A DNA stretch of 64,000 nt from an uncultured Rickettsia sp. Lineage in GTDB: Bacteria; Pseudomonadota; Alphaproteobacteria; Rickettsiales; JABSSG01. The stretch lies in contig CAZEVK010000002.1 of the NCBI GenBank assembly GCA_964515755.1, positions 10,378 through 74,377 of the forward strand. The letters are read 5' to 3'. A program made the position numbers and the translations under genes. The stretch's first letter is position 1, and each line of letters starts with the position of its first letter. A model generated the notes under the pieces. The model saw only the letters and a program-made list of their open reading frames with translations, had not been told where the DNA came from and ran no database searches. Positions 148 through 64,000 of the stretch are shown here, one piece after another.

Positions 148-510
148 TTAAAAGCTATCTAATCCAAAAGCGTAGTAAAGCTCGCCTAATAATAACTCAT
201 TATCTTCTACAGAGATATCAACGTTAGTAAAATATTTAGCTGTATTATTGTGCAAGTAGTCATTAAAAGCATTTTGTACTGGCTCTATTTGGTCCGGATT
301 TTTGTAAAAAGAATTAAAATCATTAGCAAATTTAACAGTTTTTGAACTGAGCTCAGCTATACGTTCGCTTGAGCAACCTGCACATTTATCAGGATGTATT
401 GATAATAAATGTTTTCTGTAATATGGTTTAGCTTCTTTTGTAGTTGGTACTGAAGTTGGTTCTAATCCTAAATCAGTCATCACATCTTTCCATTTTGATA
501 AAATTGACAT
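148..510 (-). CDS. Small non-canonical J-domain (DnaJ-like) protein
   Basis: 120-aa ORF with an ATG start. YRKHLLSIHPDK carries the diagnostic HPD tripeptide in a J-domain helix II/III context. There is no G/F or zinc-finger region. The C-terminal tail is LLLGELYYAFGLDSF. Confidence 0.6.
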   Translation of the reverse strand: MSILSKWKDVMTDLGLEPTSVPTTKEAKPYYRKHLLSIHPDKCAGCSSERIAELSSKTVKFANDFNSFYKNPDQIEPVQNAFNDYLHNNTAKYFTNVDISVEDNELLLGELYYAFGLDSF

Positions 511-524
511 AAAAACCTCAATTA

Positions 525-1166
525 TTAAAATTTATAAGTTAGCCCTGCTGTAATTTCATTAGTAGATAATGATTTTACTTTATAATACGAAGCTGTTTTA
601 TTAACATTAGTAGTACTAGTATAAACTGTTCCCTCAAGTTTCCCAAGTCGGTAATATCTGTATCCTATATCTACTCTTAAATTATCAATGACCGCAATTG
701 TTATCCCTGCACCAGCATTAAAGATTATGTTACTAGTAGTTTTTCCGGATTGAACAATTGTTCCAGTGATCGAACCAGTAGTAGAGCTTCTAGTAAAGTT
801 AGATAATTTGTTTTTTCCATACCCTATTCCGGCTGTAAGATAAGGTATAACATCATCTTTACTATCTGAAAGATTTAAATATGCATTTAACAATGCTGAA
901 TAGTTAGTTGCTTTGTCCGCAACAAAAGAGTTTTTTATAGTTAAAGGTCTATATTGTAGATTTAGATCGGTTCTAAAAACATCATTAAAATGATATCCTA
1001 CTCCAAGATTATAGATAGGGGTTGTTTTAAAAGAAGTTTTACTTCCTTTAGGTATTGAAGCACCTGCATCTATTCTTGCATAAAACCCTTTTATGTCTTC
1101 TGCTAAAGAGATATTAGAAGTAAGTATAATTGCAGAAGCAAATAAATAAATCGCAGTACGCATCAT
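525..1166 (-). CDS. Outer-membrane beta-barrel protein (Omp25/opacity/OmpA-barrel-like)
   Basis: Signal peptide MMRTAIYLFASAIILTSNISLA, alternating beta-strand pattern, Gly/Tyr-rich, and an aromatic C-terminal residue (...AGLTYKF). Confidence 0.7.
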   Translation of the reverse strand: MMRTAIYLFASAIILTSNISLAEDIKGFYARIDAGASIPKGSKTSFKTTPIYNLGVGYHFNDVFRTDLNLQYRPLTIKNSFVADKATNYSALLNAYLNLSDSKDDVIPYLTAGIGYGKNKLSNFTRSSTTGSITGTIVQSGKTTSNIIFNAGAGITIAVIDNLRVDIGYRYYRLGKLEGTVYTSTTNVNKTASYYKVKSLSTNEITAGLTYKF

Positions 1167-60707: not shown

Positions 60708-62378
60708 ATGATAAGTGAACAACAAAAACCTCTAATTGACCAATATTTATTGGCAAAAAATTACTCGAGTGTTGTTGACATCATTGTTAGAAACACTGAT
60801 CCAGAAAACGATAAACATTCTATCACTCTAGCTTATATGATGAAGTTTTTGCCAACCAAAAACCTCAATATAGCTACTATTACTAAACTTGCAGAAATTT
60901 TTGATACAAATGAAAATGCACCAGCGGCAACATTAGAAGCTGCTTATGCAACTTTCTGTGAACAATCAGGTATTTATTCCGAAGAATCTAAACCTCTTAC
61001 CGCAGCTGATATAGAAACAAAAAAAATCGATAGCGCATTAAAATCAGTAGCTGGCTTAGAACATGAAGAGAAAATAAAAACTCTTGCTGCTACTATGTCA
61101 TTTGAAGGGATAGGGAAAAATATAAAAATTTTGAAAGAAAGGCTACAACCGGCTTTACAAACTCATCAAATTGATCGTAACCTTTTGGATCAATTATCCA
61201 TATTTAAAGAGGTACTTGCACAAAAAGAAGGCGTTAAAAAGGATTTCACTGTCTGGGATAAAGAAGTAAGTTTAGATGAAGTAGAAACTAGAAAGCCTGT
61301 GCGAATAGTTGAAGGTTTAGATTTAATGAAAGAATTACAAACAACATACCTAGGAACATTAGCTTCACCAGCAGATGACAACCAAGTAAGCCAATTATTA
61401 TTTTTACAATCAAATAATTACTTGAGCAAAAAAGAAATGACCACTGAAGAAGCCGATATTACTTCCAATACCACAGCTGAACAGTTAGTAAAAAATACTC
61501 GTACAAAAATTACAGCTAAAGACCCTATAAAAGGCGATGACATGTGGTGGACTGATGATAAAGAATATACATTCTCAAATGGCTCCAAAATTATTCAAAG
61601 TAAAAACGATGATCATTCTACTTACAACTTCTTAACTGAAGGTGACAAAAAAGGAATGACATACACTTTATCTGTACATAGAGTTGATGCTCATGGAAAA
61701 TTATTACCTAATGCATATGATTTAGTTCAATATGTAGATGGTGAGCCAATCGCAATGATTTCATCAACTGAAGGATATAGCGCGATAAAAAATTATGATT
61801 TTATAGCAGCTCAAATAAAATTAATTAAAAATCAAGATTTTTCAATATTGAAAACTCCTGCAGTAGAACAAGCTCCTGCTAGAGCTGAAGAAAAAGCCGT
61901 TGCAGTAGAGGCACCTGCTGTATCAGAAGCTGTTGTTGAAACAGTATCAACTCCTACCATAGCAACTGAACCTGTAATTATAACTCCTGATACAGAGGTT
62001 ACAGAAGAAGTTACGACGCAAGTTGACCCTGTAAAGCTAAAACCAGTAAAAACTGACACTAAAGAGCTCGAAACAAATACTGCGGCAAAGTCTGAAGCTG
62101 TAAAAACAGAACCTAAAACTGTAATACCAGATACTAAAGAGCTTGAAACAAGTGCTACTGTAAAATCCGAAACTGCAAAAATAGAACCAACAGCTGATAC
62201 TAAAGGACTTGAAGCAAAGCCTGCTGCAAAACCAGAAAATATAAAGACAGAAACAATGCTAATTGATAAAAACACGCAAACAGCTCTTGATACTATTCGT
62301 AGTAAGCTACAGAATATTGACCCACTCAATACTCAATCAGCACCTAAAAAGGACGAAGCAAGCAAAGGCAGACATTAA
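60708..62378 (+). CDS. Hypothetical protein with Ala/Glu/Thr/Val/Pro/Lys-rich repetitive C-terminal third
   Basis: 556-aa ORF with an ATG start. A possible promoter TTGACA lies at 60624-60629. The C-terminal region has DTKELET...KSE..K.EP units. Confidence 0.5.
   Translation: MISEQQKPLIDQYLLAKNYSSVVDIIVRNTDPENDKHSITLAYMMKFLPTKNLNIATITKLAEIFDTNENAPAATLEAAYATFCEQSGIYSEESKPLTAADIETKKIDSALKSVAGLEHEEKIKTLAATMSFEGIGKNIKILKERLQPALQTHQIDRNLLDQLSIFKEVLAQKEGVKKDFTVWDKEVSLDEVETRKPVRIVEGLDLMKELQTTYLGTLASPADDNQVSQLLFLQSNNYLSKKEMTTEEADITSNTTAEQLVKNTRTKITAKDPIKGDDMWWTDDKEYTFSNGSKIIQSKNDDHSTYNFLTEGDKKGMTYTLSVHRVDAHGKLLPNAYDLVQYVDGEPIAMISSTEGYSAIKNYDFIAAQIKLIKNQDFSILKTPAVEQAPARAEEKAVAVEAPAVSEAVVETVSTPTIATEPVIITPDTEVTEEVTTQVDPVKLKPVKTDTKELETNTAAKSEAVKTEPKTVIPDTKELETSATVKSETAKIEPTADTKGLEAKPAAKPENIKTETMLIDKNTQTALDTIRSKLQNIDPLNTQSAPKKDEASKGRH
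62055..62262 (+). repeat. Three tandem coding units of about 22-25 aa
   Basis: DTKELETNTAAKSEAVKTEPKTVIP / DTKELETSATVKSETAKIEPTA / DTKGLEAKPAAKPENIKTE. Repeated GA(C/T)ACTAAAG(A/G)(G/A)CT(C/T)GAA is visible in the DNA. Confidence 0.6.
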
Positions 62379-62531
62379 ATCAAATTGATTCTAGAACTAT
62401 ATTATTATTGTATAAAAAACAAAATATTACCTACTAATTTTGTTTGAGATAATTCAGCAAAATACTTTAAGAAAAATTTTTGTAATTATAATTATATAGT
62501 ATTAATATTTAGTATAAAGTGCCACACATGC

Positions 62532-64000
62532 TCAAAATTCACTAAGAGCGTTATTATGATTATTTTCTCCAATTATAGGTATTAAACCACTAGCCAGATA
62601 ATTAATCATTAATAATTCAAATACCTCTAGATTGAAATTGTCTTGATTAACTGCATCATGCAATATTGTAGGAATATCAGGCGTATTAACTGCTCCATTT
62701 TCCATTAACATATTAGTTGTTAGCTCATTATCAAGAGAAAATCTCAATGCGTTACTACTAGCAACATCTACTTCATGATTTATCAATAAAGTAATAACAT
62801 CTATAAGTTCATTAGCAACTGCTAAACTTAATAGACTAACTCCTCTATTATCCAACGCATTGACATCTGCTCCATTATTTATTAACAAGCTAGTTACATT
62901 TAAGTGCCCGCGTAATACTGCTATGCCAAATGGAAGAAATCCATGAATATCCAACGCATTGACATCTGCTCCATTATTTATTAATAACTCAACTAAATTT
63001 ATTTCCCCAATTCTAATAGCCCATGCTAAAGGATTATTGCCTTCACACACCACAGGAACTAATTGTTCATCGGCGGTCACTAAAGTAAATTCGTGAGGTA
63101 TTGATATATGGTTTATACGATTTGGTACTAATGAATTAACATTTGCCCCAGACGCCATCAATAAAGTAGCTATATCATTTATCACATTATTATCTATACC
63201 CGCTAAATTTGTAAGTATTTGTATATGCATAGCACCATTATGCCCTAATAAAGTAATAGGCTCTTGACTTTGATATGATTCTAATGTGCAGACTACATTA
63301 CCGCCTGCTGATGAAGTAATCTTTATTCCATATATTTTCGATTTTACGTTGATACCGTCATCCGGTATTGATATGCGGATAATATTCTCAGATTCTGGTG
63401 AATTAACATTTGCTCCACGCTCTACCAACAAAGCAGTAATATCTAAATTTCCTATTTCGACAGCCCATCCTAATGGAGTATCTCCATTATCCAAAGTATT
63501 CACATCGCTAATATATGATAAATTAACATCTGCTCCCATATCTGTCAGAAAAGTAATAAAATCTAGATTTTCACTTCTAACAGCCCAGGATAAAGGAGCA
63601 TCATATTGATATCCTAGTAAATTAATATCTGCTCCCTTATCAATCAGTAAAACAGCAAATTTAAAATACTTATGAGCTATGGCTCTTGTCAAAGGTGTTT
63701 CATTTTCACTTTCTGGATCAGATAAATTAATATCTACCCCACTTTCTAGCAACGAAATTACAAGATCAAATTGACCATTATATATTGCATTCGATAAAGT
63801 TATATTATCAGCAGTTTGAATTAAATTAATATTTGCTCCATGTTTTTTTAATAAGCAAGCAGTGTCTGAATACCCATAAAATAAAGACCATCCTAATGGA
63901 GTGTTTCCATCGTTTCCTGCTGCATTAACATTTGCCCCACAGGCTATTAGTAATTCGGCAATCTCTAAATTATTTAAGCCAGGTTGATTTAGCCTTATAA
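62532..64000 (-). CDS. Large ankyrin-repeat protein, 3' part (ORF open to the right window edge)
   Basis: The track ORF 62532-63752 starts at an internal TTG. My own translation shows the frame stays open upstream to nt 64000 (...IRLNQPGLNNLEIAELLIACGANVNAAGNDGNTPLGWSLFYGYSDTACLLKKHGANINL...). There are many ANK repeats, a non-ANK insert of about 100 aa, and tail PIIGENNHNNALSEF with a TGA stop. Confidence 0.8.
   Translation of the reverse strand, partial: IRLNQPGLNNLEIAELLIACGANVNAAGNDGNTPLGWSLFYGYSDTACLLKKHGANINLIQTADNITLSNAIYNGQFDLVISLLESGVDINLSDPESENETPLTRAIAHKYFKFAVLLIDKGADINLLGYQYDAPLSWAVRSENLDFITFLTDMGADVNLSYISDVNTLDNGDTPLGWAVEIGNLDITALLVERGANVNSPESENIIRISIPDDGINVKSKIYGIKITSSAGGNVVCTLESYQSQEPITLLGHNGAMHIQILTNLAGIDNNVINDIATLLMASGANVNSLVPNRINHISIPHEFTLVTADEQLVPVVCEGNNPLAWAIRIGEINLVELLINNGADVNALDIHGFLPFGIAVLRGHLNVTSLLINNGADVNALDNRGVSLLSLAVANELIDVITLLINHEVDVASSNALRFSLDNELTTNMLMENGAVNTPDIPTILHDAVNQDNFNLEVFELLMINYLASGLIPIIGENNHNNALSEF

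Follow-up and report, generated by a model that had tools for sequence, protein, structure and literature searches.

A shared C-terminal tail on unrelated accessory proteins of an uncultured freshwater Rickettsiales: a candidate type I secretion signal with a partly HDEL-like ending

Introduction

Why should an ankyrin-repeat (Ank) protein, an RTX-repeat protein, a J-domain-like protein and a number of orphan proteins, encoded within a few tens of kilobases of one bacterial genome, all end in what looks like the same short tail? This question is raised by a 64,000-nucleotide stretch of an uncultured Rickettsiales genome (contig CAZEVK010000002.1, positions 10,378 to 74,377), which we call the window and in which all positions given below are counted. 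A sequence-only reading of the window had listed 13 C-termini of this kind and regarded them as the recognition tag of one export pathway. Effectors exported by type I secretion systems (T1SS) are hard to predict in Rickettsiales and other obligate intracellular bacteria, since their C-terminal signals are known only as a compositional bias. With an alignable motif, the effectors of an uncultured lineage could be catalogued directly from its sequences. We therefore explored how the tail is built, how far it exceeds chance, whether it is maintained across the lineage and which machinery, bacterial or of the host, could read it.

Results and discussion

The tail has three parts

All 13 C-termini listed previously could be reproduced exactly from the open reading frames (ORFs) of the window. 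The shared element is confined to the last 11–25 residues of its carriers. It opens with an acidic residue and two to three hydrophobic residues, which close in an almost invariant glycine, as in ELLLG, CLLG, TLLLG, ITLLG, PIIG, SLAG and ELAG (positions −7 to −15, counted from the C-terminus). For a quantitative description 23 tails were pooled, including orthologues of the same families, and the resulting counts over-weight those families that end in x-E-L. Two positions ahead of the glycine, Leu is found in 10 of 23 tails, the position directly before it is occupied by Leu, Ala, Ile or Cys, that three before it is often Glu, and Glu also follows the glycine directly in 9 of 23. The second part is a spacer of 6–18 residues after the glycine, rich in Glu, Asp, Asn and His. 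Enrichment amounts to 2.8-fold for His, 2.6-fold for Glu and 1.8-fold each for Asn and Asp, while Lys (0.15-fold), Pro (0.23-fold) and Arg (0.25-fold) are depleted, as is Cys, leaving 5 Lys or Arg in 267 post-glycine residues. The third part consists of acidic or Ser residues followed by one to three hydrophobic residues, D/E/S-E-L being the commonest form: position −1 is Leu in 14 of 23 tails and Leu, Phe, Ile or Met in 20 of 23, position −2 is Glu in 14 of 23, and position −3 is Asp, Ser or Glu in 16 of 23. Three ends depart from this pattern, namely those of the ORFs starting at 28868 (MGG), 17189 (EHA) and 23124 (FAH). Readings of the LLLGE core as a dileucine signal (DxxLL or [DE]xxxL[LI]) or as a clathrin box were discarded; the position of the acidic residue is inconsistent among the tails, that of the glycine consistent.

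The tail exceeds chance expectation

The strict core [LIVM][LIVM]G[DE], with its glycine at −6 to −19, is present in 5 of 57 window proteins; the rate at which this four-residue pattern occurs inside the proteins would predict 0.20, so that the excess is 25-fold. Controls were taken from 80 unrelated proteobacterial loci. Not one of their 1078 ORFs combines the strict core with 20 last residues free of Lys and Arg, and not one ends in [DES]EL, while each feature is found in 5 of the 57 window proteins. A combined classifier, demanding two hydrophobic residues and Gly at −5 to −22, no Lys or Arg after the glycine and an acidic-then-hydrophobic end, selected 8 of 57 window proteins but only 8 of 1078 control ORFs (odds ratio 22, p = 2e-7). 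All eight window proteins had already been listed as carriers. The motif is confined to accessory proteins, and the earlier reading had stated that the housekeeping proteins of the window lack it. Lys and Arg together make up 10.7% of the proteome, yet both are absent from the last 20 residues in 11 of 13 listed carriers; the same holds for 2 of the 44 remaining proteins. The net charge over these 20 residues ranges from −1 to −7 in the carriers, with 0–1 Lys or Arg. The acidity extends beyond the tail: the median net charge per 100 residues of the whole protein is −4.7 in carriers and +1.7 in the rest (p = 2e-6), and the last 60 residues of the carriers are poorer in K, H, P, M, W and C. Taken in its loosest wording, the pattern of the sequence-only reading gives 18 sites against 7 expected and by itself therefore justifies only some of the listed proteins.

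The carriers are otherwise unrelated, as had been claimed, since all-vs-all BLASTP returned Ank-repeat similarity only, which excludes paralogy. A blastn-short comparison of the carrier 3′ ends found no shared DNA repeat, only overlaps of convergent neighbours. The similarity of the tails thus exists at the protein level only.

These results bear on two explanations that would deny the tail a role in export. The first holds that there is no common function and that the tails are a by-product of composition in the disordered acidic ends of rapidly evolving orphan proteins, a set of shared structural caps or the outcome of post hoc picking. The modest excess under the loose definition means that some members could be chance matches, and the ATP-binding cassette (ABC) protein discussed below demonstrates that a strand of two hydrophobic residues, Gly and Glu near a C-terminus can be purely structural. 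Nevertheless, the excess of the strict core and its absence in Lys/Arg-free form from the controls, the invariance of the glycine within families whose neighbouring residues vary, and the recurrence of the tail on unrelated folds in several species with no shared DNA cassette render this explanation very improbable. The second would make the tail another kind of C-terminal tag, i.e. a sortase, exosortase or rhombosortase signal, a protease or degron tag, or a mobile repeat inserted in frame. LPXTG, PEP-CTERM and GlyGly-CTERM signals do share a conserved small-residue motif close to the C-terminus, and Rickettsia palindromic elements insert in frame. However, neither a transmembrane helix nor a basic cluster follows the motif here, its place being taken by 6–18 polar or acidic residues; the missing nucleotide repeat at the 3′ ends argues against an origin resembling palindromic elements, and the acidic-hydrophobic end is unlike ssrA-type degrons. 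We accordingly regard such a tag as highly doubtful.

Two listed proteins have to be reconsidered. The inclusion of the ABC protein (57034–59478, −) had been called odd for an inner-membrane protein, and it is most likely a false positive on the evidence of its alignments. Its last 24 residues form a conserved block in five orthologues, the least similar of which is 44% identical, and 12 positions of the block never vary; Lys is permitted directly after the glycine, and distant members carry extra residues behind the block. The H-loop His of its ATPase domain is residue 776, and alignments to PDB entries run on into "...DGTSCV", equivalent to "...IRGVDCI" in ABCB. Canonical ATPase domains have last strands of the form x-I-V-E-x-G. 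The apparent tail is thus probably the conserved block directly after the ATPase H-loop, where canonical domains place these strands, and the caveat of an odd carrier dissolves. An AlphaFold2 model of the protein, computed from the 5-sequence alignment, reached a mean pLDDT of 32. As a side observation, this 814-residue protein is an atypical, lineage-restricted ABCB/ABCD-like exporter with weak scores against ABCB and T1SS models; a word-indexed search of 5.8 billion proteins returned only 4 protein clusters of homologues, and its gene is split into three ORFs in the sister metagenome-assembled genome (MAG) CAMCSP01; its counterpart in the related locus L117 lies at 8153–10602 (L-numbers label related contigs or loci). 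The second protein, an orphan of 345 residues (28868–29905, −), is a weak carrier: its doubtful tail VHAAGLVHEYQSVMGG (28871..28918) is free of Lys and Arg and ends in MGG, lacking the acidic-hydrophobic end, and a hydrophobic segment spans residues 13–31 at its N-terminus.

In turn, a SET-domain protein (12264–13022, −; Pfam SET, 2.4e-10), which was absent from the earlier list, has the extreme C-terminal part only. Its acidic end PLIDFNKDEL (12267..12299) closes in a perfect KDEL and has no Gly motif; its orthologues end in ...KFEDDL and ...DHGDF, retaining the acidic-hydrophobic end but not KDEL. What remains after these corrections is a real shared pattern with about 11–12 solid carriers, all unrelated accessory proteins, in the window.

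The tail is maintained across the lineage

The window itself is AT-rich (G+C about 31%) and contains the bacterial housekeeping genes dnaA-dnaN, mfd, rplU-rpmA-obg, pth-rplY-ychF, def and fur. DnaA finds its best match among GTDB representatives at 58%, with no close relative among them. The orthologues of three other proteins place the lineage in the Rickettsiales: those of the ABC protein come from a lake MAG and from OZ245841.1, a complete chromosome labelled "Rickettsiales bacterium", Mfd shares 88% identity with its counterpart in the lake MAG CAMCSP01, and SET protein orthologues were found in "Rickettsiales bacterium" MAGs. Freshwater-lake metagenomes of JGI contain genes identical to window genes, and from these matches the source lineage is an uncultured freshwater Rickettsiales. 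Around 300 kb of related loci were read beyond the window, about 6 useful metagenome contigs being recruited via transposases and further relatives via the ABC, Mfd and SET proteins.

The tail was seen in the independent lineage loci L085, L089, L103, L110, L112, L200, L202 and L203. L085 contributes ...KLVGETSNTEIWLNNRDEL on a methyltransferase as well as ...ITCNGETMNHNTDHSEL and ...GIIGNQYHNNEMIDLTVM, L089 contributes ...NIGEVLSTEQGYTEECQHTEL, and L110 and L112 contribute ...LCGEIVYAEFDWSEL, ...ECLGASIIHDNDEL on a Sel1-repeat protein and ...ELCGVSYSEAVIYVI; the more distant relative L200 still displays ...LPLGVTTEYEKTEL and ...IVAGATATPHPDEHSEL. Ends of the form xxEL are found in 14 of 191 lineage ORFs outside the window compared to 1 of 1083 controls (p = 2.5e-11), 3 of the 14 belonging to a family that had been used to fetch the loci. 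Within the family of the orphan protein at 8034 (7 members, 41–81% identity) the glycine never changes and C-L-[LV]-G-[DE] is kept; the residues ahead of the motif vary, as do length and sequence behind it. The Gly motif is likewise retained in orthologues of the RTX protein, of the small protein at 17189 and of the Ank protein at 20824. Since the motif stays fixed in families while the surrounding C-terminus varies, the sequence comparison indicates that the tail is a lineage-wide feature and that selection acts on the motif.

We additionally observed that related contigs carry an integrase, Tn3 and IS transposases and F-type TraB/TraC, resembling mobile elements of the RAGE type (Rickettsiales amplified genetic elements). 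F-type TraB/TraC, a Tn3 transposase and a phage-type integrase adjoin tail-bearing genes in L112 (1–3119), L109 (5184–8048) and L085 (1–1150), a make-up which suggests that effectors travel on such elements.

Type I secretion as the reading we favour

Which pathway would recognise such a tail? With moderate confidence, and judging from sequence features, we propose that it serves as an uncleaved C-terminal signal for a T1SS, composed of ABC protein, membrane fusion protein (MFP) and TolC, of the kind known from serralysins and lipases. Four points speak for this reading: the layout of the motif fits, an RTX protein is among the carriers, the carriers are acidic, and T1SS secretion of Ank and repeat effectors has a precedent in Rickettsiales. 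In such a model, the unfolded C-terminus would be bound after translation by the T1SS ABC protein, with the hydrophobic-Gly element acting as the "VTLIG" motif and the last residues as the "extreme C-terminal motif", and the protein would be threaded out in one step, with no periplasmic intermediate. The exported set would comprise Ank, J-like, SET, Sel1, RTX, lectin/GH16-like, methyltransferase and orphan proteins, which are accessory and partly eukaryote-like, and in the window it would take in roughly a fifth of the proteins, grouped in an island at 15–30 kb.

The lipase and protease class of T1SS signals combines the hydrophobic five-residue motif VTLIG with an extreme C-terminal motif (PMC3430570, PMC4604771), lipase examples being EGVLIS in TliA and VTLIGV plus SSIMFA in LipM (PMC3430570, PMC4604771). 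In the serralysin C-terminus (PDB 1SMP/1SRP), Gly stands at −11 behind two hydrophobic residues, a polar residue comes next, and Asp with three hydrophobic residues closes the chain, which follows almost literally the pattern given by the sequence-only reading. Serralysins and family I.3 lipases (PrtA/B/C/G, AprA, LipA, TliA) thus resemble the carriers in having a C-terminal signal and no Sec signal, in the hydrophobic stretch leading to Gly some 10–20 residues from the end and followed by a polar residue, in the acidic-then-hydrophobic terminus and, in one carrier, in the RTX repeats. They differ in that most carriers lack RTX repeats or a beta-roll, Glu, Asn and His are more frequent in the carrier spacer, the end usually holds one hydrophobic residue (D/E-E-L) instead of three to four, and the carriers are eukaryote-like or orphan effectors and not hydrolases, with no cognate ABC/MFP genes adjoining.

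A second comparison is offered by effectors of the same order. T1SS substrates are acidic proteins with few Lys, and their signal is uncleaved and lies in the last ~60 residues, which are poor in K, H, P, M, W and C. For Rickettsiales there is experimental support that Ank and tandem-repeat effectors leave by a T1SS, and T1SS genes are reported in Orientia (PMC4315096). Orientia Anks, Ehrlichia TRPs and Ank200 and Rickettsia RARP-1 share with the carriers the order, Ank passengers, acidity and a signal within the last ~60 residues; these effectors have no known consensus signal beyond a bias rich in LDAVTSIF and poor in KHPMWC (PMC4315096), whereas the carriers display a discrete, alignable and His-enriched motif. 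What appears to be new in our data is therefore not the kind of signal, which is known, but a discrete motif on non-RTX, eukaryote-like Rickettsiales effectors, combined with an HDEL-like ending. Eukaryote-like effectors would thereby be connected with the "VTLIG plus extreme C-terminus" signal long known from secreted hydrolases.

Support for an export role that is independent of motif resemblance comes from the GH16/lectin-like protein (18184–20712, +). An exhaustive profile search gave 48 representatives of its family. Distant homologues in other bacteria mostly start with a signal peptide or lipobox and are tailless, whereas members of the present lineage have no N-terminal signal and carry the tail, e.g. 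...ELSGSAHQGHEEL, ...DHDEL, ...YNDEL and ...YHEEL. By this comparison the family, which is Sec-exported elsewhere, has swapped its N-terminal signal for the C-terminal tail, and this exchange argues for the tail being an export tag. In agreement with the previous claim that the carriers lack Sec signals, inspection found no start resembling a signal peptide among them, except possibly in the protein at 28868.

Several observations nevertheless weigh against type I secretion. The VGQ...DFIV segment of serralysin is part of a folded beta-sandwich, so that the likeness is one of short-motif layout and not of homology. No T1SS genes (ABC, MFP, TolC) were found in the window or in the ~300 kb of related loci; the ABC exporters that were seen are a 582-residue MsbA-like protein in L113 and the atypical protein at 57034. 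RTX nonapeptide repeats are restricted to the protein at 16518–17045 among ~12 carriers, although RTX repeats are not needed by all T1SS substrates, the Rickettsiales Anks being an example (PMC4315096). His is 2.8-fold enriched in the tails while T1SS signals are described as His-poor (PMC4315096), the preference for His, Lys, Arg or Asn at −4, ahead of x-E-L, has no known T1SS rationale, and several carriers contain long hydrophobic segments, unusual for T1SS passengers. Taken together, the proposal that the tail is the tag of one export pathway is backed by the arrangement of the motif, by the RTX repeats of one carrier, by the acidic composition and by the signal swap of the GH16-like family, while its link to a particular machine is indirect.

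The same data allow a comparison with type IV secretion systems (T4SS), in which the tail would be read by a coupling protein, either VirD4 of the Rickettsiales Rvh system or that of a Dot/Icm-like system. T4SS signals are likewise C-terminal and unstructured, Rickettsiales carry VirB/D4 genes and Dot/Icm signals contain Glu-rich E-blocks plus near-end hydrophobic residues (PMC4315096), resembling the acidic spacer. Ank and SET carriers are moreover typical T4SS effectors elsewhere. However, VirB/D4 signals feature positively charged Arg clusters (PMC4315096), and the tails have neither a net positive C-terminus nor Arg clusters, being almost devoid of Lys and Arg and net negative. As to Dot/Icm, the Gly motif does lie between acidic residues and the tail closes in a hydrophobic one; no dot/icm gene was seen in the DNA read. 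Type IVB systems resemble the present case in C-terminal, Glu-rich signals with near-end hydrophobic residues and in large repertoires including Ank, SET and Sel1 proteins, but they are systems of Legionellales and not of Rickettsiales, the Gly motif has not been described for T4SS signals, and an RTX protein does not fit among the passengers. The search for secretion genes suggested by the sequence-only reading uncovered only the F-type tra genes of the mobile element, in the window and related loci. Dot/Icm systems are not known from Rickettsiales, and the Dot/Icm alternative raised earlier finds little room in this order. Overall, we judge a T4SS signal to be unlikely.

A second class of orphan proteins in the window has basic, Arg/Lys-rich C-termini (31463–32788, +; 59558–60340, −; 60708–62378, +; 55404–56624, +), examples being ...ESARGRSPSRGSRSSSPADWW, ...TIERKRREAREFIPPKSV and ...KKDEASKGRH, which resemble Arg-cluster signals of the VirB/D4 type. 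The window may thus contain effectors of two classes whose tails are oppositely charged.

An HDEL-like ending and the host endoplasmic reticulum

The sequence-only reading overlooked one property of the tails, which type I secretion leaves unexplained: many end like retrieval signals of the endoplasmic reticulum (ER). Five window proteins end in x-[DES]-E-L (KDEL, NDEL, HDEL, ESEL and HEEL), and in the rest of the lineage HSEL, HEEL, RDEL, KDEL, HTEL, WSEL, NDEL, KTEL, YDEL and QHEL occur. At position −4 the human KDEL receptors accept Lys, Arg, His, Asn, Phe, Trp or Tyr; at −3 Pro alone is excluded, −2 is Glu, and the last residue is Leu or Phe (Raykhel 2007, PMC2140024). In addition, HEEL, HTEL, KTEL, EDEL and HAEL are working variants in human cells (Raykhel et al. 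2007, PMC2140024). The window ends KDEL, NDEL, HDEL and HEEL fit this code and ESEL is EDEL-like. The pooled set contains 13 xEL tails, in which position −4 is His in 6, Asn in 3 and Lys, Arg, Trp and Glu in 1 each, while −3 is variable; the bias corresponds to a binomial p of ~1e-7 by sequence, and 9 of 10 independent families fall within the allowed set. Elsewhere in the xEL tails, His, Lys and Arg are rare or nearly excluded. The code is fitted by about half of all tails, and more than half of the window carriers have no xEL end.

Conservation of the ending differs between families. Ends in the GH16-like family are HDEL, HDEL, NDEL, HEEL, HEEL and YDEL, its orthologues reading ...DHDEL, ...YNDEL, ...YHEEL, ...GHEEL and ...HYDEL, each with Gly 10–18 residues from the end. 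The xEL end is conserved in the RTX (NDEL, QHEL) and methyltransferase (RDEL, KDEL) families too, and not conserved in the SET (KDEL, EDDL, HGDF) and Ank-20824 (SESEL, ECGG) families.

One could take this to mean that the tail is mainly a host sorting signal, with ER retrieval by the KDEL receptor as its purpose, the Gly motif as mere context and bacterial export by some other route. The effective code reported by Raykhel (2007, PMC2140024) is indeed matched by the xEL tails, Lys and Arg are tolerated essentially only at −4 and −7, and xEL is conserved in the three families named above. Yet over half of the window carriers end otherwise (DSF, ADI, DIM, EHA, FAH, QSL, SEF), SET and Ank orthologues lose xEL while the Gly motif persists, a KDEL end is effective solely inside the secretory-pathway lumen and the carriers have no eukaryotic signal peptide, and the Gly motif would be left unexplained. 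We therefore consider this explanation improbable.

With type I secretion kept as the export route, the ending could be accommodated in a dual-purpose tail, in which the hydrophobic-Gly element and the acidic spacer would serve T1SS exit and the [H/K/R/N]-x-E-L end would be read by the host KDEL receptor. We put this forward tentatively, as a possibility on the less likely side, and consider ER retrieval a speculative extra layer on the export signal and not its primary explanation. About half the tails resemble the KDEL/HDEL signal, which AB toxins use too (cholera toxin KDEL, LT RDEL, exotoxin A REDLK, K28), in closing with four residues that fit the receptor code, and the sequence ahead of these is acidic as it is in ER chaperones. 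Unlike KDEL/HDEL proteins they are made in the bacterial cytoplasm with no signal peptide, many lack xEL, and their access to the lumen is a prediction only. No precedent for HDEL- or KDEL-ended effectors of endosymbionts or Rickettsiales was found in the literature.

If the dual signal is true, the symbiont would live in, or secrete into, a compartment continuous with the ER/Golgi lumen, and the host ER would be stocked with symbiont J-domain-like co-chaperone, lectin-like and Sel1-repeat proteins. Alternatively, retrograde traffic by the KDEL receptor, as for AB toxins, would bring T1SS effectors that lack an injector to the ER and onward to the cytosol; toxins employ KDEL-type ends for retrograde transport (PMC4974620). 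A functional HDEL-like ending would make this the first symbiont effector repertoire addressed wholesale to the host ER lumen via the host retrieval receptor, and would provide a testable clue to where the bacterium lives.

Individual carriers and neighbouring genes

Nine tail carriers lie within ~15 kb, forming the carrier island (15390–29905, i.e. 15.4–30 kb). The outlying carriers include the J-domain-like protein of 120 residues (148–510, −), which has the tail ELLLGELYYAFGLDSF (151..198) with the strict core LLLGE, Gly at −12, no Lys or Arg and the end D-S-F, and whose weak DnaJ match includes the HPD motif, as well as the orphan of 233 residues (8034–8735, −) with the tail MCLLGDGNADI (8037..8069). 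Further downstream, an orphan of 404 residues (45157–46371, +) ends in TEITGNNFYYFDQSL (46324..46368). Its gene is missing between mfd and the Ank gene at the syntenic site of a sister MAG (L197; Mfd 88% identity), and by this comparison it is accessory, gained or lost recently. The ankyrin-repeat protein at 62532–63752 (−) ends in IPIIGENNHNNALSEF (62535..62582), and a fragment in the sister locus L092 ends in ...IPIIGENNHNNAFSE.

Within the island, the orphan of 181 residues (15390–15935, −) has the tail AAELGSVANTEDIM (15393..15434), with a net charge of −7 and no Lys or Arg over the last 20 residues and the end E-D-I-M. The RTX-repeat protein of 175 residues (16518–17045, +; Pfam HemolysinCabind, 1.4e-17) has its tail region at 16947..17042, reading ...GITLLGDHSYLAGSSSNFEFYTVNDEL and containing G-I-T-L-L-G-D; the orthologue in L202 reads ...SLLGDHSYLELAGSDSNFQFYTDQHEL. 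Its last 90 residues gave only weak Kelch-like and leucine-rich-repeat matches in a phmmer search of PDB. Just ahead of the tail (16900–17000, +), the segment PRYDVGITLLGDHSYLAGS weakly matches designed Kelch blades in PDB at ~8 bits per repeat, a resemblance which is probably a chance likeness of the beta-strand-Gly pattern. The neighbouring small protein of 98 residues (17189–17485, −) ends in TLLLGEDQPHNSTIIEHA (17192..17245). Its orthologue in L202 (2389–3027) has 212 residues, the same C-terminal half and the end ...VETLLGGENQLYNTTIDNF, and the window ORF is probably 5′-truncated or its start mis-called.

The GH16/lectin-like protein, 842 residues long, carries the tail IDVSGNVIRDDHDEL (20665..20709). 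It is followed by an ankyrin-repeat protein of 487 residues with Ank Pfam matches (20824–22287, −) and the tail YWEIGTMGNSSESEL (20827..20871), whose orthologue in L202 ends in ...AELTGELVECGG, with the Gly motif retained and the xEL end gone. Two more orphans, of 109 residues (23124–23453, −; classifier-positive) and of 295 residues (25849–26736, −), end in ASLAGSFAGGNIYDAFAH (23127..23180) and FELAGVSHEEL (25852..25884).

Not every eukaryote-like or virulence-type protein of the window is tailed. The Ank protein at 46408–47166 (−) has the basic end ...FYKSVEVS, and a patatin-like phospholipase (11317–12234, +) and a TPR protein (5985–6947, +) have lipoprotein-type N-termini instead of a tail. 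The carrier island also contains a split gene of a major facilitator superfamily transporter (24449–25333 and 25408–25716) and phage terminase remnants (26881–28104). Finally, an intergenic ORF of 32 residues in the island (24111–24209, −) has a tail-like end, ...NFNLLGEIMLEVF, and may be the leftover of a decayed carrier gene.

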